This document shows, piece by piece, positions 1 to 54,899 of a stretch of 62,116 nt of DNA. Numbering within the stretch: position 1 is the stretch's first letter; each line of letters begins with the position of its first letter. Source of the DNA: Candidatus Aenigmatarchaeota archaeon. GTDB taxonomy: Archaea; Aenigmatarchaeota; Aenigmatarchaeia; CG10238-14; SpSt-28. Location: the NCBI GenBank assembly GCA_018920305.1, contig JAHLMO010000003.1:1-62116 (forward strand), in the 5' to 3' direction. A program made the translations under genes and the position numbers. The notes beneath the pieces were generated by a model that saw nothing but the letters and a program-made list of their open reading frames with translations, searched no databases and had not been told where the DNA came from.

Positions 1-2346
1 TTCTATTCTCATTAAACCTATTCCTTCAAATGGTAAATTTCTATATTTTTTAATAGCTTCTGGAACTCCTAAATTCATCAATATCTTTGTTTTAGTTTTT
101 AATTTTTTAACTTCTTCAACTTCAACCTCTTCGCTCTTAATATATTTTAATAATTCCTCAACTTTTCCATCATATACATAACCCCTATATGCATCTACAG
201 TAACAATTTGATTTTCAACTAAAACTTTTGTTGCTTCCTTTGTTCCAACTATACAAGGAATTCCCATTTCTCTACTTACTATTGCAGCATGCGAATTAGA
301 TACTAATATTGGAACAAAATTTTCGGATAAAATTATATAATTTTTTTCTAATTCATTACTTCCATAGACTTCAAAATTATAAACATAATCATATTTTTCT
401 TTCGAAATAAAATTAATTGGAAATCTTAAAATTTTCCTTCTTTTTAATTTATCCTTTTTCAATATTAATTTACCATTAACTATATTCGGTAAGACTCCAA
501 TCTTAATTAAAGCAAGAGATATTGCCTTGATTAAATTTTCTTCCCATATTTCAATAGAATTATTTAAGCTTAACAAACCTTTTAGAAAATACTTTGTAGA
601 TTCCTTATCCAAATTTAAAACAAATATTTCTAAATTATTTAATATTTTAATTAAAAATGTATTTTCCAATTCTAATAATTCAGATTTTAATATTTGAATT
701 TGATGCGAATTATCTCTATTTATGTTTTCAACAATTTCTGATAGTTTCTTTGTAGCAATTAGACTACCTATTAAATATGCTAACTTTTTAGAGTTTATAC
801 TTATTAATTTTTCTGGTATATCAACTATAGAAATTAGTGGAATATTTCTCTTATATAAAATTTCAATAGGAATTTTCTTAATTTGATTATCCTCAAAAAC
901 AATTGCCTTATGATCTTTAGTTAAATAAATAGCATCAGAAAAATCTCTTATAAAAATTTTATAAATATAGTCTTTTCTTCTTCCAGCAGCTATAATTCTT
1001 TTCCAAACTAATTTTTTTTCTAAATTCATTGATAAGAGATAAACAACTTTATCCTCAGCAACTAACTTATAAACTTTTTCTGCTTCCAAGATACCATAAT
1101 TTGTTATTAATTTTGTATTAGGAGCTAAACAAGTCATTCCACCTTCGTCTGTAATTATCGCAGCCGCTCTTTTCATAGCAGGAACCATATCTGGTTCGGT
1201 CATAGTAGTTACTAAAATATCTCCCTCTTCTATTTTATTAATTTCTGAAGCATCCTTTAAAATTTTTACTTTTCCTATTGCAATTCCACCACTAGCAGCT
1301 AAACCTTTCAATATTGGCTTTATTTTTATATTAACTTCATCTAATTTTTTTTCAAAAAATGCAGTTACAGGTCTTGATTGAACTATATAAATTTTTTCGT
1401 TTTCAACTACATATTCGACATCTTGTGGAAAATTATAATGTTTTTCAATTTTTAATAAAATTTTCCACAATTCTCTTAAAATTTTATCATTTAAGCATGG
1501 AATCTCACTTAATTCTTTAGGAACTTCTACTTCTTCTAATCCAAAATCTCCGCTTGCTATTTTCATTTTTGTTTTTTTAGATATATGTTTTTCTAAAATT
1601 TTTCCTGTTCTCTTATCTATAACAAAAGTATCTGGAGTAACATATCCACTAACAACAGCTTCTCCCTGACCATAATGAGCTTCAATAACTATTTTATTTT
1701 TATCTCCACTCGCTGGATGTATTGTAAAGGCTACACCAGCAACATATTTACCTTTTAAATACTCTTCTTTAGAAATTTTTCCAAGTTGTTTTTGAATTAC
1801 TACAGCAATATCAACTTTTAAATGATCGAATCCTTTTTTTGTTCTATAGAATGTTGCTCTAGCGGTAAATAACGAAGCCCAACACTTTTTAACTGCGTTT
1901 AAAACATTTTCTACTCCTTTTACATTTAAAATCGTTTCTTGTTGACCAGCAAAACTTGCCTCTTTTATATCTTCTGCAGTAGCACTGCTTCTAGCAACAA
2001 CATAAATTTCTTTACCACCTTCAATTTCACTTAGTTTTTTATAAGCCTCAATAATTTCTTTTTCTAAGTCTTTTGGCATTGGCGCATTTTTTATTAATTC
2101 TCGAATTTTTTCAGTATTTTTTTCTAGTTGTTCTGTATTATCAACATCTGTTTGATCTAAAATTTCTTTAATTTTTTTATCTATTCCATTTCTAACTATA
2201 TGCTCTCTATATGCATTTCCTAAAACAACAAAACCATTAGGAACTGGTATTCCAGAATTTATTAATTCGCCAAGATTTGCACCTTTTCCACCAGCAATAT
2301 TTACATCATTTTTATTCAATTCTTTTAAAAATTTTATGTATTTCAT
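1..2346 (-). CDS. ppsA: phosphoenolpyruvate synthase (pyruvate, water dikinase); C-terminus lies outside the window; interrupted in-frame by an intein
   Basis: Absent from the supplied ORF track because it runs off the window edge. Minus-strand ATG at 2346-2344, with the frame open down to position 1. The N-terminus MKYIKFLKELNKNDVNIAGGKGANLGELINSGIPVPNGFVV matches the PEP-utilising-enzyme ATP-grasp domain. The phospho-His loop GGMT/SHAAIVSREMGIPCIVG is split by the intein. The tail ...NLGVPEAIKKYRNLPFEGIGLMRIE begins the PEP/pyruvate-binding domain. Confidence 0.85.
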   Translation of the reverse strand, partial: MKYIKFLKELNKNDVNIAGGKGANLGELINSGIPVPNGFVVLGNAYREHIVRNGIDKKIKEILDQTDVDNTEQLEKNTEKIRELIKNAPMPKDLEKEIIEAYKKLSEIEGGKEIYVVARSSATAEDIKEASFAGQQETILNVKGVENVLNAVKKCWASLFTARATFYRTKKGFDHLKVDIAVVIQKQLGKISKEEYLKGKYVAGVAFTIHPASGDKNKIVIEAHYGQGEAVVSGYVTPDTFVIDKRTGKILEKHISKKTKMKIASGDFGLEEVEVPKELSEIPCLNDKILRELWKILLKIEKHYNFPQDVEYVVENEKIYIVQSRPVTAFFEKKLDEVNIKIKPILKGLAASGGIAIGKVKILKDASEINKIEEGDILVTTMTEPDMVPAMKRAAAIITDEGGMTCLAPNTKLITNYGILEAEKVYKLVAEDKVVYLLSMNLEKKLVWKRIIAAGRRKDYIYKIFIRDFSDAIYLTKDHKAIVFEDNQIKKIPIEILYKRNIPLISIVDIPEKLISINSKKLAYLIGSLIATKKLSEIVENINRDNSHQIQILKSELLELENTFLIKILNNLEIFVLNLDKESTKYFLKGLLSLNNSIEIWEENLIKAISLALIKIGVLPNIVNGKLILKKDKLKRRKILRFPINFISKEKYDYVYNFEVYGSNELEKNYIILSENFVPILVSNSHAAIVSREMGIPCIVGTKEATKVLVENQIVTVDAYRGYVYDGKVEELLKYIKSEEVEVEEVKKLKTKTKILMNLGVPEAIKKYRNLPFEGIGLMRIE
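295..1131 (-). mobile_element. intein (279 codons) inserted in the catalytic phospho-histidine loop of PpsA; the middle domain looks like a decayed LAGLIDADG endonuclease
   Basis: Junctions read ...AAIITDEGGMT|CLAPNTKLITNYGILEAEKVYKLV... and ...NYIILSENFVPILVSN|SHAAIVSREMG. Removing 837 nt restores GGMTSHAAIV. Cys1 (block A), LTKDH (TxxH, block B), DYVYNFEVYG...ILVSN (blocks F/G), terminal Asn and +1 Ser are all present. Confidence 0.75.
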
Positions 2347-4201: not shown

Positions 4202-4840
4202 ATGGTAAGATTAGATAAGATAAGAAGATTGAAAGAAAATCTTGCAGTAAAAAGATTTTTCATAACTCTAATTTTAACTATTTCAATTTCTCTTTTCTAT
4301 TTTAATTTATATAAATTTTTAGAAACACCAAAATTAACTCTTATTAGAAAGTTTGAAATATCTAATGCATTTGTTTGGATAAGAAAAGATATAGATAGTG
4401 GTTTTTTCGCTATTGAAAGAACTTATGAATATAAAATAAATTATCCATATCTAATTAAAAGAAGTTTTTACTGTTACGACTTACCAAAGAACGCTATTTT
4501 TTATTTAAAAACTGGAGAAATGATAGAAGTAAATTATATTGAAGATAAAGTATGTATTTCTTCAGAAATTAGAGAATTTGTAATAAAAGAAGTTGAAAAA
4601 AGAGATATAAGAAACTATGTTAGATTAATTGTTTTAGAAAATTCATATAAAGTTTTAATAAAAAATCCTTTTGATTTTCCATTAAATTTAGATATTAGAA
4701 TAGATGTGGAATCTCTAATTAATAAACAAGGAAATATCTATAGAGATGGAATTTTAATCTTATCAAATGCTTCTTATTTCTTTGATTCAAAAGTGATTTT
4801 GCCCTATGGAAATTTGGAATATGAAATTAGAGGAGATTAA
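4202..4840 (+). CDS. hypothetical protein with one N-terminal transmembrane helix
   Basis: ORF only. It has a hydrophobic segment FFITLILTISISLFYFNLY and is wedged between ABCE1 (3-nt gap) and tmcA (overlap). No motif recognised. Confidence 0.5.
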   Translation: MVRLDKIRRLKENLAVKRFFITLILTISISLFYFNLYKFLETPKLTLIRKFEISNAFVWIRKDIDSGFFAIERTYEYKINYPYLIKRSFYCYDLPKNAIFYLKTGEMIEVNYIEDKVCISSEIREFVIKEVEKRDIRNYVRLIVLENSYKVLIKNPFDFPLNLDIRIDVESLINKQGNIYRDGILILSNASYFFDSKVILPYGNLEYEIRGD

Positions 4841-7064
4841 AAAATTAGTTTTAGAACTTAAAAACGAAGCTAAAAAATTCAACGAAAGAAGAATTTTAGC
4901 AATTTTTTGTGATAAAGATTTAAATTATCTAAAAGAAATTTTTAAAATTATTGAAAGTAAGAATTCGATTTTTGTAAGTAATGAAATATCTAAATTTGAA
5001 AACTTAAATCTAAATTTTTATTTTCTTGAGTTTAAAGATAGCAGAAAAATTTTAGGTCAAACTTTTGATAATGCTATTATAGACTTTAGAGAAAACATTC
5101 ATCCAGATGATATCGGAAGAATTGTAGATAGTATAAAAGGCGGTGGAATAATAATTTTTATTTTTAGAAAATTGAACGAATTTCTAGACTATCAATATAA
5201 ATTTAAGAAGTTGCTAGTATATTCTGATCAAATGCCAAGAAATGTTTTTGAAATTAGATTTTTTAAAAAATTATTTGAAGGAAAACCAATTTCAATAGTA
5301 ACTATTGAAAATGAAAACATCGAAATTAAAAAAATTGGAAAAGTAGAAAAAGAAAAAATGGAAAAAGAAAAGATAGTTTTTCCGAAATCAAAAATACCAA
5401 AAATAATTTTTAAAATTTGTAAAACTCAAGATCAAGTAAATGTAATTAATTTATTAGATATTTTTTTTGAAAACGATAAAAAAGTTTTTATATTAAAAGC
5501 AAATAGAGGTAGAGGTAAATCATCTAGCCTAGGACTTTTTTTAGCAAATTTAATCTATAAATTTGAAAAAAGAAAATTCAAAATAAAGATATGCATAAGC
5601 TCCTTAGAAAAAGAAAATGTAAATACATTATATAGATTTTTAGAGATCGGATTGAATAAGCTAAAAATTAAGTATAAAAAAGAAAATTATAAAATTATAA
5701 CAAATTATTGCTATATAGAATATAGTGAACCAATAAAAATTTTAGAAAATAAATATGACTTAGTAATTATTGACGAAGCTGCAGCAATATCAGCAAATAT
5801 ATTAATTAGAGTTGCAAAAAAATTTGAAAAGTGCATATTTTCATCTACAATTCATGGCTACGAAGGTTCTGGTAGAAGTTTTGAAATAAAATTTAAGGAA
5901 TTCTTAAGAGAAGAAAATATCGAATTTATAGAATATGAAATGAAAGAACCCATAAGATATTCAATTGATGATGAAGTAGAAAAATGGATATTTGATTTTC
6001 TTTTATTAGATAGCGAACCTTGTGAATTAGATAAAGAAGATATAATGAAAATATCTAGAGAAGAATATGAATACTCGAAAATAGATATAGAAAAATTGTT
6101 TGAAGATGAAGAATTATTAAGAAATTTTTTTGGTATTTATGTTATTGCACACTATAGAAATAGACCAAGAGATTTAGGAATATTAGCAGATGCTCCACAC
6201 CATTTTGCTAGATTTGTTAATGTAAAAAATACAAAAAAAATTATAAATTCATTGCATCTTAGTTTTGAAGGTAATTTAAATGACGATTTAATAAATTATA
6301 TTTTATCAAAAGGTGCTAAAGAGATTTTTGGAAACATTATTCCAGGAATATTATTGAGACATTATAGAGAAAAAGAAATTGCTAAATTGAAAGGAATTAG
6401 AATAGTAAGGATAGCTACTCATCCCAAATTATTTAGTTTGGGTATTGGAAGTTATGCAATAAAAAAAATTGAAGAAGAATTCGAAGATAAAGTTGATTAT
6501 ATTGGCACTGTTTTTGGTATTTCACCAAAGCTTGCAAAATTTTGGATAAAAAACGGTTTTGTTCCTTTGCATATTTCTTCTAAGAGAAATGAAACAAGTG
6601 GAGAGTATAGCACTATATGGATTAAACCTTTGAATGATAAAGCCAAAGAAATAGTGGAAAAAATTTATTTTGAATTTAAACAAAGATTAATTGCTAGTTT
6701 ATCCGATGCGTATTACGATATGGAATTAGAGAGTGCATATATACTACTAAGCAAACCTATCAATTCTTACTATTTTCCATTGCTAACTAAAAATCAAATA
6801 GAAAGAATAGAGGCATTTTCACAAGATTTATTGCCATATGAAAGTGTTACAGATGTTGTAAAAGAAATTGCAAAATTTTACTTTTTAACTAATTATCAAA
6901 ATCTACTTAATGAATTTGAACAGAAAGTTTTAATTGGAAAATTATTTCTAGGAAAAGGTTGGAAAAAGTTAAGTTTAGATTTGAATAAGAAGAATGTTAC
7001 AGAAGATTTTAGAAATATAATAAAAAAACTTTGGAATAATTTTAAGCCGTTAATCGAAGTTTAA
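4806..7064 (+). CDS. tmcA: tRNA(Met) cytidine acetyltransferase TmcA (Kre33/NAT10 family)
   Basis: Helicase-like P-loop GRGKSSSLG, IIDEAAAI and STIHGYEGSGRSFE, followed by a GNAT segment RIVRIATHP...GIGSYA. Confidence 0.85.
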   Translation: MEIWNMKLEEIKKLVLELKNEAKKFNERRILAIFCDKDLNYLKEIFKIIESKNSIFVSNEISKFENLNLNFYFLEFKDSRKILGQTFDNAIIDFRENIHPDDIGRIVDSIKGGGIIIFIFRKLNEFLDYQYKFKKLLVYSDQMPRNVFEIRFFKKLFEGKPISIVTIENENIEIKKIGKVEKEKMEKEKIVFPKSKIPKIIFKICKTQDQVNVINLLDIFFENDKKVFILKANRGRGKSSSLGLFLANLIYKFEKRKFKIKICISSLEKENVNTLYRFLEIGLNKLKIKYKKENYKIITNYCYIEYSEPIKILENKYDLVIIDEAAAISANILIRVAKKFEKCIFSSTIHGYEGSGRSFEIKFKEFLREENIEFIEYEMKEPIRYSIDDEVEKWIFDFLLLDSEPCELDKEDIMKISREEYEYSKIDIEKLFEDEELLRNFFGIYVIAHYRNRPRDLGILADAPHHFARFVNVKNTKKIINSLHLSFEGNLNDDLINYILSKGAKEIFGNIIPGILLRHYREKEIAKLKGIRIVRIATHPKLFSLGIGSYAIKKIEEEFEDKVDYIGTVFGISPKLAKFWIKNGFVPLHISSKRNETSGEYSTIWIKPLNDKAKEIVEKIYFEFKQRLIASLSDAYYDMELESAYILLSKPINSYYFPLLTKNQIERIEAFSQDLLPYESVTDVVKEIAKFYFLTNYQNLLNEFEQKVLIGKLFLGKGWKKLSLDLNKKNVTEDFRNIIKKLWNNFKPLIEV

Positions 7065-14347: not shown

Positions 14348-16105
14348 TTATATTGGAAAACCAAATGCAGATGCAATTGTTCTATCTATATCTATCTTCG
14401 TAGCTACGACATAATCAAAAAAATATTCACCAGCGACAGACGCTTCATATAATAGATATGGAGCAAAATATTTTCTTTTTAGAAAAGTTTCTTCAAATTT
14501 AATAACGTACTCACTTAAAATATTATAGAACTCTCTTCTTTTTTCTTCTTCTAATTTCTTATAATTTTCTTCCTCTTCAAAAAGATAATCTAAACTTCTT
14601 ATATCTAACCAAACGTTAAGTTTTTGCTTAGTTTTTTGACCCTTCACATCTACCTCTATTTCTATTTCCTTTAATAGCGATTCTCCAAAAAAAGAATTAA
14701 TTTGTTGTTCATAATATGTATCTAATGCTTTTGTTTGAAGATACATTAAAAATGCTAAATTTTGAGAAATCAAATAAGGTTTAATACTAAATGCAAAATC
14801 TTCTATTTCTATGCCAGAATAAGTTTTTAATAATACTCTATCTATCGAAATCTCAACAAAAACATAATATGGACTTAATTTCCATCTTTCTTTATCTGGA
14901 GAAACTTCATACTCCTTTTTATATAACCTCTCTCTTATATCTAAAATATCATCTATTGAAAAGTTTGCACCATAATTTTGATTAATAACTTCCAATCCTG
15001 CTAATACAACTCTATCAACAGATGGTTCTACTGGCATTACAACCTTTTTTACTCTCTCTTCTTTTGATTTATCGACCAGCTTAATAATATTTTCCGATAT
15101 TAAACCAATTCTTTCTAAAGATAGAAAAGCATGCCTTGTCTTTTCGTATTCAAAATAAGATGATGGAATAGACTTAATTAACCATAATTTTGTAGATTCG
15201 ATGAATAAAGGATATGTTGCTGGCTTAATAAACGATAAAGAAGTTGATGTAAACATAGATGGATCTTCTTTAAAAGAAAAGTATCTTGCTATCAATGGTC
15301 TTAACATTTCCTTGTATTTATCTATTGAATTCTTTCTCATTATTAATAGCTTTCTTAATTCTGCCTCTCTCTCTTTAACAACTCTTTTAAATTCTTCCCT
15401 CCAAATTAAGTATAGTTGATTTTTTTTAGCTAGTTGTATAGCTTCTGCCTTTGTTATATTTGGGATTTTTTGTAAAACATCTTCGGGTGTTCTTTCTTCA
15501 TCTAATGAAAGAAAATCTGAAATAAATGTTGTCCATCTAGTTCTAGCCATGTTTATTATAGAAAAATCACCAGTATAAATATCGACTTGATCTATAAAAA
15601 TATTTCTCAACGATTGATCTAACTCTTTTTTTCTTCTTTCTAATTCTTCGATTTTCTCCCTATTTTTTTCTTCACTTAATTTTTTTTGAATTTCCTCTAA
15701 CTCAATGAAAATTTTTAAAAAATATTTATACTTTCTATAGTCATGAGCAATTAACTGAGTATCTGTAATTGCCGTAGCAATTTGAGCCAGTTGTGCTTTT
15801 ATATTATTTTCAATTTCTTCTTTTTGTCTTCTTATATTAGAATAAAAAGGTTGATAGTTCGAACTAACATATAAACTTTCATCTATCTTAAAAACATCAA
15901 AACCTTTTTTTCCAAAACCAAATATGATAGAATAAATTATTTCAGTTACTTTTCCTGAAAAATGAGTAAAATCTAAACTATATGGAGGCATAGAAAGAAT
16001 GCAATATTCCTTTTCGTGTAACCTAAACTTTTTATTTCCAGTTAGAGATTTTATAAAATTTTCAATTTCCCCTTTTAATCTATCTGGTAATAAAACTTCT
16101 ACCAT
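14348..16105 (-). CDS. hypothetical 585-aa protein with coiled-coil segments and no recognisable domain
   Basis: Long uninterrupted ORF in AT-rich DNA. Its start overlaps the stop of the upstream micro-ORF (ATGGTAG). No P-loop, metal-binding or TM motifs seen. Confidence 0.6.
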   Translation of the reverse strand: MVEVLLPDRLKGEIENFIKSLTGNKKFRLHEKEYCILSMPPYSLDFTHFSGKVTEIIYSIIFGFGKKGFDVFKIDESLYVSSNYQPFYSNIRRQKEEIENNIKAQLAQIATAITDTQLIAHDYRKYKYFLKIFIELEEIQKKLSEEKNREKIEELERRKKELDQSLRNIFIDQVDIYTGDFSIINMARTRWTTFISDFLSLDEERTPEDVLQKIPNITKAEAIQLAKKNQLYLIWREEFKRVVKEREAELRKLLIMRKNSIDKYKEMLRPLIARYFSFKEDPSMFTSTSLSFIKPATYPLFIESTKLWLIKSIPSSYFEYEKTRHAFLSLERIGLISENIIKLVDKSKEERVKKVVMPVEPSVDRVVLAGLEVINQNYGANFSIDDILDIRERLYKKEYEVSPDKERWKLSPYYVFVEISIDRVLLKTYSGIEIEDFAFSIKPYLISQNLAFLMYLQTKALDTYYEQQINSFFGESLLKEIEIEVDVKGQKTKQKLNVWLDIRSLDYLFEEEENYKKLEEEKRREFYNILSEYVIKFEETFLKRKYFAPYLLYEASVAGEYFFDYVVATKIDIDRTIASAFGFPI

Positions 16106-32780: not shown

Positions 32781-32881
32781 TGCCGGGGGTGGGATTTGAA
32801 CCCACGACCTCCGCGTTTCTTATCATCGATTCAAAGCTCATTAAATATGAGCGCGGCGTTCTACCACTAAACTACCCCGGC
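32781..32881 (-). tRNA. tRNA with CAT anticodon (elongator Met, or Ile2 if modified), 29-nt intron at 37/38 (32817-32845)
   Basis: Reverse complement reads GCCGGGG-TA-GTTT-AGTGGTA-GAAC-G-CCGCG-CTCATA[TTTAATGAGCTTTGAATCGATGATAAGAA]A-CGCGG-AGGTC-GTGGG-TTCAAAT-CCCAC-CCCCGGC-A. The intron segment ATGAGC pairs with the anticodon region GCTCAT, as in a BHB helix. Confidence 0.85.
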
Positions 32882-38567: not shown

Positions 38568-38666
38568 GGGGCCGTAGTCTAGCCAGGCAGGACGGCGGGC
38601 TCCAGAAATGGAGCACCGATAAAATGAGGAAACCCGTTAACCTGGGTTCAAATCCCAGCGGCCCCA
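38568..38666 (+). tRNA. tRNA-Trp (anticodon CCA) with 26-nt intron at 37/38 (38606-38631)
   Basis: GGGGCCG-TA-GTCT-AGCCAGGCA-GGAC-G-GCGGG-CTCCAG[AAATGGAGCACCGATAAAATGAGGAA]A-CCCGT-TAAC-CTGGG-TTCAAAT-CCCAG-CGGCCCC-A. The intron segment TGGAG pairs with CTCCA. Confidence 0.85.
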
Positions 38667-40673: not shown

Positions 40674-40812
40674 CGCCGGGGGTGGGATTTGAACCCACGC
40701 GGGCTTAGAGCCCACCGGCTTTCTCTTATAACAAAATCATCATTATTTTCAGCTACCCCAGAGCTTATCATTTAACTCGAGGCCGGCGCCATATCCGCTA
40801 GGCGACCCCGGC
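40674..40812 (-). tRNA. tRNA-Ser (anticodon CGA, class II long variable arm) with 55-nt intron at 37/38 (40721-40775)
   Basis: Reverse complement reads GCCGGGG-TC-GCC-TAGCGGATAT-GGC-G-CCGGC-CTCGAG[55 nt]A-GCCGG-TGGGCTCTAAGCCCGC-GTGGG-TTCAAAT-CCCAC-CCCCGGC-G. Confidence 0.8.
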
Positions 40813-42084: not shown

Positions 42085-43494
42085 ATGAAAAAAGATATAA
42101 TAATCTTAAATGAAAATAGTAATATTGCTATATCAACTCTATGGTCAAAAAAAGAAATAATTTTAAATCAACTACAAGAAAAAATAAGAAGTAAAATCGG
42201 AATTATTGGAACTACTTATACAACTTACGGAATTAATTTTATTTTAGAAACGCTAGCACAATTTCCAAAAATAGATACTTTAATAATCTATGGTGCTGAT
42301 TTATCTCTAAGTGGAAAAGCTTTAATCGATGTTTTTAAGAACAAAAATTTTAGAGATTATAAAATAGTTTTTCCAATAAATAAAATTGAAAATGTTTTGA
42401 ACACAGTTAAAATTATTGATTTAAGAGAAGAATTTAAAAAAAATAATATTAAAAAACTTGAAGAAGAAATAGAAAAAAATTTTAAAACAAATGCAAAAGA
42501 AGTTAGAGAAAAAATCGATATAACAATTGAAGAAAAAGTAGAATTAGCTTCTTGGCCAATTCCATTAAGCGGTAGCTATATATACGATACAAGCATTTTT
42601 AGAGCATGGATAAAGACCTTAGACTTAATAATGAAATTTGGAAGCGTAAAGTTTTCAGAATATGAAGAACCACAAAAAGAATTTTTAAATTTAATGATTA
42701 CTATAGGTCTATATGGTAAAGAATATAAAATTGAAGAGGAATTTTTTGAATTTTTGAAAAGAGAAGATTTTGAAAGGCATATTAATGAAGTTCTATACCC
42801 AAAAAAATCAGAGAGTGTTGATTATACGTATGGAGAAAGAATCTTTGAACATAGATTTGGGAAAAATCAAGTTAAATATTTAATCGATAAGTTATCTAAA
42901 GCTCCATATTCAAGAAGAGCTTTAATCGTTTCATGGGATCATCTAATAGATCAGAATTCCTCGAATCCACCATGTATAATAGGTATTCAAGGAATAATAA
43001 CAGAAAATTATTATAATCATACCGTTTGGATTAGAAGTAATGATATGGTTAAAGGATGGCCTATAAATATTGTTGCTCAAATAAAATTAGCAGAATATAT
43101 TGTTAATGAAATAAATAGAGAGACTAAGTCGAATTTTGAAATCGGAACAATAACAACAATCTCTACGAGTGCACATATTTATAAGCATGATTGGAATTTA
43201 GTGAGAGAAATACTAAATAAATATTCATTTAAAATGAAGGAGTTCGTAGAAGATCCTAAAGGTTTATTTTTAATTTATCAAGAAAATGATAAAATAGTCC
43301 TAGAACATAGAACTCCAGATAATTCTTCAATAGATTTTAAAATCGAAAGTAAAGATTTTTGGGAAATATACAATTCCTTGAAGGGCGGAAGTTTTTTTAG
43401 TTTATATGATCATGCTTTATACTTAGGAAAAGAAATAACAAAAGCTTTTGAAAAATTAAAAAGAGGAGAGAAGTATATTCAAGATCAAGCTTAA
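42085..43494 (+). CDS. thymidylate synthase (ThyA)-like C-terminal domain fused to an unassigned ~250-aa N-terminal domain
   Basis: The C-terminal half has SRRALIVSWDHL...NPPCIIGIQGII...WIRSNDMVKGWPINIVAQIKLAEYI...SAHIYKHD, paralleling the ThyA motifs RR..W(N/D)P, PPC(H), RS.D...G.PFNI and (D)AH.Y. Confidence 0.6.
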   Translation: MKKDIIILNENSNIAISTLWSKKEIILNQLQEKIRSKIGIIGTTYTTYGINFILETLAQFPKIDTLIIYGADLSLSGKALIDVFKNKNFRDYKIVFPINKIENVLNTVKIIDLREEFKKNNIKKLEEEIEKNFKTNAKEVREKIDITIEEKVELASWPIPLSGSYIYDTSIFRAWIKTLDLIMKFGSVKFSEYEEPQKEFLNLMITIGLYGKEYKIEEEFFEFLKREDFERHINEVLYPKKSESVDYTYGERIFEHRFGKNQVKYLIDKLSKAPYSRRALIVSWDHLIDQNSSNPPCIIGIQGIITENYYNHTVWIRSNDMVKGWPINIVAQIKLAEYIVNEINRETKSNFEIGTITTISTSAHIYKHDWNLVREILNKYSFKMKEFVEDPKGLFLIYQENDKIVLEHRTPDNSSIDFKIESKDFWEIYNSLKGGSFFSLYDHALYLGKEITKAFEKLKRGEKYIQDQA

Positions 43495-43554: not shown

Positions 43555-43677
43555 GCGGGGGTCGCCTAGCCTGGCCAAGGGCGTCGGGCTTAAGATAAAT
43601 AAAATCTTAAGCTTTGAATAAATGATAAGAAACCCGATGGCGTAGAGCCGTCGTGGGTTCAAATCCCACCCCCCGCA
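43555..43677 (+). tRNA. tRNA-Leu (anticodon TAA, class II) with 37-nt intron at 37/38 (43595-43631)
   Basis: GCGGGGG-TC-GCC-TAGCCTGGCCAAG-GGC-G-TCGGG-CTTAAG[ATAAATAAAATCTTAAGCTTTGAATAAATGATAAGAA]A-CCCGA-TGGCGTAGAGCCGTC-GTGGG-TTCAAAT-CCCAC-CCCCCGC-A. Confidence 0.85.
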
Positions 43678-54799: not shown

Positions 54800-54899
54800 A
54801 GCCGGGGCCGGGATTCGAACCCGGGATCTGCGGGTTTCTATCGCTCATAAATCGCAAAACCCTGCAGCCCGCCGCGTGAAACCGCTCCGCCACCCCGGC
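54800..54899 (-). tRNA. tRNA-Cys (anticodon GCA) with 26-nt intron at 37/38 (54836-54861)
   Basis: Reverse complement reads GCCGGGG-TG-GCGG-AGCGGTTTC-ACGC-G-GCGGG-CTGCAG[GGTTTTGCGATTTATGAGCGATAGAA]A-CCCGC-AGATC-CCGGG-TTCGAAT-CCCGG-CCCCGGC-T. Discriminator U73 is the classical Cys identity element. Confidence 0.85.

Follow-up and report, generated by a model that had tools for sequence, protein, structure and literature searches.

A shortened PpsA intein with a decayed homing endonuclease in a Candidatus Aenigmatarchaeota archaeon

The ppsA gene and the insert at its phospho-histidine loop

The left edge of a 62,116-nt stretch of contig JAHLMO010000003.1 from a Candidatus Aenigmatarchaeota archaeon (hereafter the window, meaning this whole stretch) carries the gene ppsA for phosphoenolpyruvate (PEP) synthase, PpsA, which is interrupted at its catalytic loop by a 279-residue insert. 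The window itself is archaeal; its GC content is 0.254 and an archaeal signal recognition particle RNA is present. Direct translation of window 1-2346 (-) gives 782 stop-free codons from ATG 2346, with the start MKYIKFLKEL, which agrees with the starts of the orthologues P0001 and P0002. The initial annotation of this DNA had described a continuous PpsA from this ATG that the program-made list of open reading frames (ORFs) does not contain, and the translation bears this out. The gene is absent from the list only because its frame runs off the left window edge, where ORFs are omitted. The product is identified as PpsA by Pfam PPDK_N (6e-109) and NCBIfam PEP_synth (7.5e-170). The Pfam model of the PEP-utilizers mobile domain, PF00391, is matched as two separate stretches that flank the insert, and its profile positions 34-72 correspond to ppsA residues 684-722. 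Orthologue P0002 is a complete PpsA of 1049 aa with the same insert. The parts of the gene are as follows.

1132..2346, minus strand: N-extein of ppsA, residues 1-405, with ATP-grasp domain (PPDK_N) and first half of the swivel domain (PEP-utilizers), ending ...AAIITDEGGMT (Pfam, NCBIfam)
295..1131, minus strand: intein, 279 aa, CLAPN...ILVSN (translation, homology, predicted fold)
1..294, minus strand: C-extein of ppsA, residues 685-782, cut by the window edge (PF00391; gap-free alignment to solved PpsA)
292-294, minus strand: Ser+1, first C-extein residue
289-291, minus strand: catalytic His+2, directly after Ser+1

The insert comprises ppsA residues 406-684, which correspond exactly to window 295-1131 (-) and read CLAPNTKL...FVPILVSN. 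It sits between ...DEGGMT (Thr405) and SHAAIVSREMGIP, and the insertion bond lies one residue ahead of the catalytic phospho-His. Removal of the insert in silico gives GGMTSHAAIVSR. The spliced swivel domain aligns with solved PpsA chains (8a8e at 2.7e-44, 9dae and 2ols) without a gap over the junction, where structure 9dae reads DEGGMTSHAAIVSRE. The pattern G-[GA]-x-[TN]-x-H-[STA]-[STAV]-[LIVM](2)-[STAV]-[RG], which we take to be the PEP-enzyme phosphorylation-site pattern PROSITE PS00370, is present in the spliced product GGMTSHAAIVSR and absent from the precursor. An insert of 279 codons at these positions, whose removal restores GGMTSHAAIV, had been proposed in the initial annotation and is upheld by the exact mapping and the gap-free alignment. 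An alignment to intein-free PpsA had been suggested there as a check, and in such alignments neither PpsA orthologues nor solved structures have any counterpart of the insert. Splicing is expected to give a 32 kDa intein from a precursor of roughly 118 kDa. The predicted junction peptide of the spliced protein is DEGGMTSHAAIVSR, and those of the precursor are GGMTCLAPNTK and ILVSNSHAAIVSR.

Homology and predicted fold of the insert

The insert alone was used as query in an exhaustive HMMER (phmmer) search of 1.84 billion representative proteins. This search returned 21 matches with P0002 as the best (2.9e-113), and most of the 21 are PpsA proteins with 409-428-aa inserts at the identical bond, led by P0003 (3.5e-22). 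These two E-values place the similarity of the insert beyond chance. Members at the same PpsA site range from 3.5e-22 to 9e-4 and include the cluster of a Methanotorris formicicus protein: P0013 clusters with WP_007044344.1, to which NCBI gives the name 'intein-containing phosphoenolpyruvate synthase [Methanotorris formicicus]'. Other matches with a homologous insert are two RtcB proteins and one PPDK. The larger relatives match Pfam LAGLIDADG_3; for Intein_splicing, the RtcB relative passes the cut-off with 54.3 bits, and the matches of the PpsA and PPDK relatives stay below it. A word-indexed search with the insert found one partial relative only, and the same search with the family alignment gave at least four matches.

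We built a family profile from 15 excised inteins (alignment A1). Its N-terminal region, which corresponds to intein residues 1-110, matches the solved inteins NrdJ-1 (3.8e-8), DnaB, DnaX, DnaE and VMA, while its middle matches the LAGLIDADG enzyme I-DmoI (3.1e-6). A phmmer search of the insert itself against PDB sequences gave no match. An AlphaFold2 model of the insert on the 15-sequence alignment reached a predicted local distance difference test score (pLDDT) of 86.7 and a predicted template modelling score of 0.85; a single-sequence AlphaFold model was unusable (pLDDT 43). A Foldseek search of the PDB with the alignment-based model gave 31 matches at E <= 0.001, every one an intein. The endonuclease-associated inteins PhoVMA, TliVMA, PI-SceI and PI-PfuI rank highest, at query-normalised template modelling scores of 0.55-0.70. 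In this model, the insert has the HINT fold.

We give virtually no credence to a reading of the insert as a normal PpsA domain specific to this lineage rather than an intein. The blank result of Pfam on the insert (see below) would fit such a domain. The reading as a domain is contradicted by the homology to annotated inteins, by the predicted intein fold, by the exact Cys...Asn/Ser boundaries and by the lack of any counterpart at this position in PpsA orthologues or solved structures. A class 1-type intein at the phospho-His loop, as named in the initial annotation, is borne out by the same-site homology, the profile matches and the predicted fold.

Splicing residues

The residues expected of an intein lie in two splicing regions at the ends of the insert.

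802..1131, minus strand: N-terminal splicing region, intein residues 1-110 (TIGR01445, family profile, pLDDT 87-97)
1129-1131, minus strand: block A, Cys1, invariant in the family alignment
895-924, minus strand: block B, L-T71-K-D-H74; H74 invariant and T71 nearly invariant in the family
295..435, minus strand: C-terminal splicing region, intein residues 233-279 (alignment; pLDDT 93-95)
331-387, minus strand: block F, YVYNFEVYGSNELEKNYII, YVYNFEV...KNY; F:4 is Asn, F:13 is Lys
295-315, minus strand: block G, VPILVSN; G:6 is Ser278 and G:7 is Asn279, followed by Ser+1

The hallmarks of a class 1 intein are present, namely Cys1, T71-x-x-H74 (B:7 and B:10), Asn279 (G:7) and Ser+1; the TKDH block B, the Cys, the terminal Asn and the Ser are all found where the initial annotation had located them. 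The assisting residues of this class are not canonical, with Ser for His at G:6, Asn for Asp at F:4 and Lys for His at F:13. The penultimate His (G:6) is common in inteins and not obligatory; F:4 is usually Asp and F:13 usually His, and both are less conserved. All aligned family members have Asn at F:4. At F:13, the window copy shares Lys with P0003, P0006 and P0007; most other members have His. A penultimate His occurs in none of the aligned members, which have S, K, A, F, G, R or E at this place, and every member with Ser+1 ends in VSN/S. The penultimate Ser had been flagged as unusual: Ser278 is indeed present, but it is not a peculiarity of the window copy, as His is absent family-wide. 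A review puts the share of functional inteins without His at G:6 at about 5% and describes both His G:6 and His F:13 as dispensable in some inteins (PMC4031507). Every member of the present family lies directly before a His of covalent catalysis, the phospho-His of PpsA and PPDK or the GMP-His of RtcB, and none has the penultimate His.

The insertion bond

The published site of prokaryotic PEPS inteins is GG[TRM]T/CHAA (PMC10710043). The insertion bond in the window is this published site, and it is also the bond used in M. formicicus WP_007044344.1. Intein-free alleles read GG[SI]TSHAAIV in another Aenigmatarchaeota metagenome-assembled genome (MAG; L011), an uncultured archaeon (L013) and a Hydrogenothermaceae bacterium (L007), which makes Ser+1 the native extein residue in such lineages. 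Presumably the same bond is occupied in Methanocaldococcus jannaschii MJ0542 by the 'Mja PEP' intein of the InBase catalogue, which we assume to splice without a penultimate His. M. jannaschii is absent among the matches listed from the word-indexed search with the family alignment, and no literature match was found on the Mja PEP intein or the jannaschii PEP synthase. Site identity with 'Mja PEP' is drawn from the Methanotorris orthologue and the published consensus.

A second intein site of PpsA was seen in the ATP-grasp domain, SSATAED[IL]P/S...THN/SASFAGQQ (L008 4001-7849; protein P0011). In L008 this site holds a large intein with intact LAGLIDADG motifs and a CxxC...CxxC insert, and the phospho-His loop of the same protein is intein-free and reads GGITAHAAIV, with Ala at +1. 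P0003 (862 aa), the PpsA that hosts the closest full-size relative of the window intein, ends soon after the swivel domain and is without the PEP-binding C-terminal domain; its gene may be a split or truncated ppsA.

The remnant of the homing endonuclease

The middle of the insert aligns to the LAGLIDADG homing endonuclease of the intact family members.

436..801, minus strand: LAGLIDADG homing endonuclease remnant, intein residues 111-232 (alignment to intact relatives)
745-789, minus strand: helix-1 remnant KKLAYLIGSLIATKK, intein residues 115-129, aligning to KLAYLxGAxxxDG
556-597, minus strand: helix-2 remnant TKYFLKGLLSLNNS, intein residues 179-192, aligning to FLAGxxDGDG

Relative to the intact 409-428-aa inteins, about 135 endonuclease residues are missing from the window copy in three blocks. 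About 22 residues are deleted directly after the first LAGLIDADG helix, about 25 in the first half-domain and about 75-95 after the second half-domain. The match of the family's hidden Markov model (HMM) to the window intein is broken into three pieces, with profile positions 177-204 and 278-365 left out. The family motif KLAYLxGAxxxDG is represented by KKLAYLIGSLIA-TKK, with TDG deleted or replaced by TKK, and FLAGxxDGDG by YFLKGLLSLNN, with SLNN in place of DGDG. Both catalytic acidic positions of LAGLIDADG are lost, and the half-domains with the DNA-binding saddle are incomplete. In the model, intein residues 115-210 are mostly helical; helices 167-210 are confident, and residues 130-146 are of low confidence (pLDDT <50). 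Unlike its intact relatives, the window intein is not matched by Pfam LAGLIDADG_3. The endonuclease is dead because both acidic residues and the DNA-binding beta-sheet parts are gone, so that the element no longer homes and is inherited vertically. The family alignment thus substantiates the two LAGLIDADG-like helices without catalytic acidic residues, and the decayed endonuclease, that had been read from the sequence at first.

Distribution, age and selection

When GTDB species genomes were scanned, the same intein, 279-282 aa long, turned up in four Candidatus Aenigmatarchaeota MAGs, L003-L006; identity to the window copy is 98% for L003 and L004 and 78-79% for L005 and L006. L002 is a fifth complete copy (70% intein identity), and L001 a partial one that breaks off at a contig end after the first 81 insert residues. 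All five complete relatives (L002-L006) share the deletions of the window intein, which places the decay of the endonuclease before the split of these lineages. No variation is seen among the window and the five complete copies at C1, T71, H74, N252, K263, S278, N279, S+1 and H+2. The order of genes around ppsA is conserved as well: ABCE1, a 212-216-aa ORF, TmcA, S6e and eIF2-gamma.

The ratio of non-synonymous to synonymous substitution (dN/dS) was calculated by Nei-Gojobori, and four pairs are unsaturated: L006/L002, window/L003, window/L004 and L003/L004.

L006 vs L002, dS 0.6-0.9: dN/dS of exteins 0.038, splicing domain 0.022, endonuclease remnant 0.062
Window vs L003 or L004, dS 0.09-0.28: dN/dS of exteins 0.05-0.08, splicing domain 0.03-0.07, endonuclease remnant 0.09-0.12

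Over the unsaturated pairs, dN/dS is 0.04-0.08 in the exteins and 0.02-0.07 in the splicing domain, and 0.06-0.12 in the remnant for three of the four pairs; the value of 0.57 for the remnant of L003 vs L004 comes from only 10 differences. Deeper pairs keep the same ordering at saturating dS. Purifying selection on the intein is about as strong as on the exteins, and this matches the expectation if PpsA activity depends on splicing.

The constraint on residues 111-232 raises the question of whether the remnant is kept for a function of its own, either as a scaffold of the splicing fold or as a sensor of temperature or redox state that makes PpsA maturation conditional. Its dN/dS is far below 1 and near the extein values in three of the four unsaturated pairs, the total size of the intein is steady at 279-282 aa over lineages at dS of about 1, and helices 167-210 are modelled confidently. 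Yet its amino acids change 2-3 times faster than those of the splicing domain (54-57% vs 70-78% identity between subclades), residues 130-146 are modelled poorly, and there is no evidence of any sensing residue. The constraint may simply be what undisturbed folding of the splicing domain demands, and we consider a function of the remnant itself unlikely.

The GC content at third codon positions (GC3) of the intein is 0.125, indistinguishable from the genome mean of 0.133 +/- 0.021. Over all positions the intein has a GC content of 0.214, below the 0.289 of the exteins, as a result of its amino-acid composition. The host-like GC3 fits an old resident intein. A recent horizontal arrival was considered and rejected on account of this GC3 together with the deletions shared across the clade. 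Searched in six frames with the family HMM, the window shows no further intein of this family, and no intein domains occur in its ten largest other ORFs.

Could the element still be mobile, by residual endonuclease activity or through another endonuclease acting in trans? Targets for homing would be at hand in the intein-free GG[SI]TSHAAIV alleles of other Aenigmatarchaeota and of bacteria. Against this stand the loss of both LAGLIDADG acidic residues, the deletion of about 135 residues including the DNA-binding beta-sheet parts, the presence of the same deletions in every complete copy, the fully host-like GC3 and the absence of a second intein or endonuclease of the family from the window. 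Continued mobility is essentially excluded.

Some observations concern the neighbourhood of these copies. The TmcA/NAT10-type RNA cytidine acetyltransferase (752 aa; window 4806-7064 (+)) lies between the 212-aa ORF and S6e, and likewise in L002; it is missing from that position in the otherwise syntenic L001. A reverse gyrase with zf_Rg, helicase, Toprim and topoisomerase domains (L002 9151-12804 (-)) adjoins the 3' end of ppsA in L002, and the corresponding region falls just outside the window. Its presence beside ppsA suggests that these Aenigmatarchaeota of about 25% GC are probably hyperthermophiles. On the 1.5-kb metagenome contig L021, an ORF at 3-329 (P0009) is homologous to the C-terminal half of the shortened intein and ends in ...EYLPIVLSY-stop, without the terminal Asn; a complete ppsA start (332-1483; MRFIKWLKEL...) follows 2 nt after it. 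Possible readings are a rearrangement or duplication of ppsA, the decayed fragment of an intein, and a chimera of the assembly.

Proposed history and splicing mechanism

We conclude that window 295-1131 (-) is, with high probability, a class 1-type intein in ppsA, an endonuclease-dead descendant of a family at the same site, which restores active PpsA by splicing. The element is very probably an old and immobile intein that still splices; splicing itself and its chemistry we infer from conserved residues and constraint.

Several points weigh against this conclusion. The Pfam models Hint, Intein_splicing and LAGLIDADG do not match the insert, and NCBIfam intein_Nterm TIGR01445 scores 23.4 bits on insert residues 1-75, 1.1 below its cut-off of 24.5. 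The structure model is based on a shallow alignment of 15 sequences. F:4 Asn, F:13 Lys and G:6 Ser are non-canonical, and of the usual histidines only His B:10 is left. The ppsA gene is cut by the window edge, and its intact 3' end is deduced from the orthologues of 1047-1050 aa. The dS values of the deeper pairs are near saturation (0.9-1.7). The Pfam miss is a failure of sensitivity and no refutation. The initial annotation had proposed Hint and LAGLIDADG models as a check and had named failing Hint models as a reason to give up the intein; this check, blank in Pfam on the insert, would have led to the wrong answer.

Several of these points could also be taken to mean that the intein is dead, with no splicing, and that PpsA exists either as inactive precursor only, effectively a pseudogene, or as a functional enzyme with the insert retained. 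The missing penultimate His, block F His and block F Asp would agree with loss of splicing, as would the miss by the Pfam intein models, and DPANN archaea with their reduced metabolism could have dispensed with PpsA. We regard a dead intein as very improbable. Extein dN/dS is 0.04-0.10 among the window and the five complete loci, and the reading frames of 1047-1050 aa are unbroken. Cys1, Asn279, Ser+1 and the T..H of block B are invariant, and the splicing domain is as constrained in the unsaturated pairs as given above. An unspliced insert of 279 aa in the middle of the swivel domain and beside the phospho-His is hardly compatible with catalysis, and inteins that lack His G:6 or His F:13 and still function are on record (PMC4031507).

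For a splicing-competent intein, we propose the following history. The ancestor would be an intein of the 409-428-aa family with an I-DmoI-like LAGLIDADG homing endonuclease, a family that occupies the same bond in archaeal and bacterial PpsA and PPDK and the analogous T/CH bond in RtcB. In one hot-spring lineage of Aenigmatarchaeota, the endonuclease would then have lost about 135 residues and both acidic residues. The precursor is probably inactive, as the insert interrupts its swivel domain one residue ahead of the phospho-carrier His. After translation, splicing would start with an N-S acyl shift at Cys1. Ser+1 would then attack the thioester in a transesterification to give a branched ester, and cyclisation of Asn279 would release the intein. 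A final O-N shift would yield GGMT-SHAAIV and active PpsA. Neither the penultimate His nor the usual block F residues would be available to cyclisation of Asn, as block F has Lys for His and Asn for Asp. It is a rather doubtful further idea that extein His+2 replaces the missing intein histidines in this step, or that the remnant makes maturation of PpsA conditional, for example on temperature.

The unusually histidine-poor active site, with only His B:10 left of the usual histidines, in combination with Ser+1 offers a possible test case for Asn cyclisation without His G:6 and F:13. The element is also a clean natural case of an intein late in its homing cycle, in which a dead endonuclease, fixation and vertical inheritance can be compared with intact relatives. 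The current understanding of inteins is unchanged by it, and its main value lies in annotation. The sole relative with a name from its source is annotated only as 'PEP/pyruvate-binding domain-containing protein'. With this name and the Pfam miss, automated pipelines will mis-size PpsA of these Aenigmatarchaeota and may overlook the need for splicing.

Other features of the window

Five Rfam tRNA matches in the window are not reported by ARAGORN.

32781-32881, minus strand: Rfam tRNA match
38568-38666, plus strand: Rfam tRNA match
40674-40812, minus strand: Rfam tRNA match, 139 nt
43555-43677, plus strand: Rfam tRNA match, 123 nt
54800-54899, minus strand: Rfam tRNA match

These five matches of 99-139 nt are probably intron-containing archaeal tRNA genes, and the lengths of 139 and 123 nt point to unusually long introns or more than one intron. 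A 585-aa ORF (window 14348-16105 (-)) has no Pfam match at E <= 1e-5. A 469-aa protein (window 42085-43494 (+)) combines a thymidylate-synthase-like domain with a C-terminal PterinBD-DUF4346.

Comparison with known inteins

The window intein shares host protein and insertion bond with the Methanotorris-type PpsA inteins and is homologous to them (phmmer 7.1e-7 to P0013). Cys1, the T..H of block B, the terminal Asn, Asn in place of Asp at F:4 and the lack of a penultimate His are common to it and the PEPS/PpsA inteins. It differs from them in its length of 279 aa vs 409-428 and in the loss of three endonuclease blocks and both acidic residues. The residue at +1 is Ser in the window, but Cys in Methanococcales and in the published consensus. 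The penultimate residue is Ser and not Phe as in P0013, F:13 is Lys and not His as in the Methanotorris-type intein, and identity to the latter is only about 26%.

The closest full-length relatives are a full-size subgroup with Ser+1 from environmental archaeal PpsA of metagenomes (P0003-P0007 and P0017; 26-32% identity). This subgroup has the same ...P[LV]LVSN/SHAAIVSRE junction as the window, and some of its members share Lys at F:13, within DKNY. In contrast to the window copy, they have intact KLAYLxGAxxTDG and FLAGvxDGDG motifs, a full endonuclease and a Pfam LAGLIDADG_3 match.

The family extends to other host proteins. It is found in RtcB (P0010, P0020) and PPDK (P0008, P0029), each time directly before the catalytic His, which in RtcB is the nucleophile that becomes guanylylated. 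The RtcB inteins are homologous to the window intein and sit at ...GST/CHGAG, also directly ahead of His, but they differ in host protein, intact endonuclease, Cys at +1 and penultimate Lys. The likeness of the RtcB and PEPS intein sites has been remarked before (PMC10710043). The site sequences suggest that microhomology may relate the endonuclease targets in PpsA, PPDK and RtcB.

With degenerate-endonuclease inteins and mini-inteins, the window copy has in common a conserved splicing domain, an endonuclease inactivated by deletion, fixation in a clade and host-like composition. Unlike a true mini-intein, it retains about 120 residues of the endonuclease remnant, and these are under purifying selection. 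The insertion site, inteins without penultimate His and inteins with degenerate endonuclease are already documented, and the window copy is a new, shortened member of the PEPS family.

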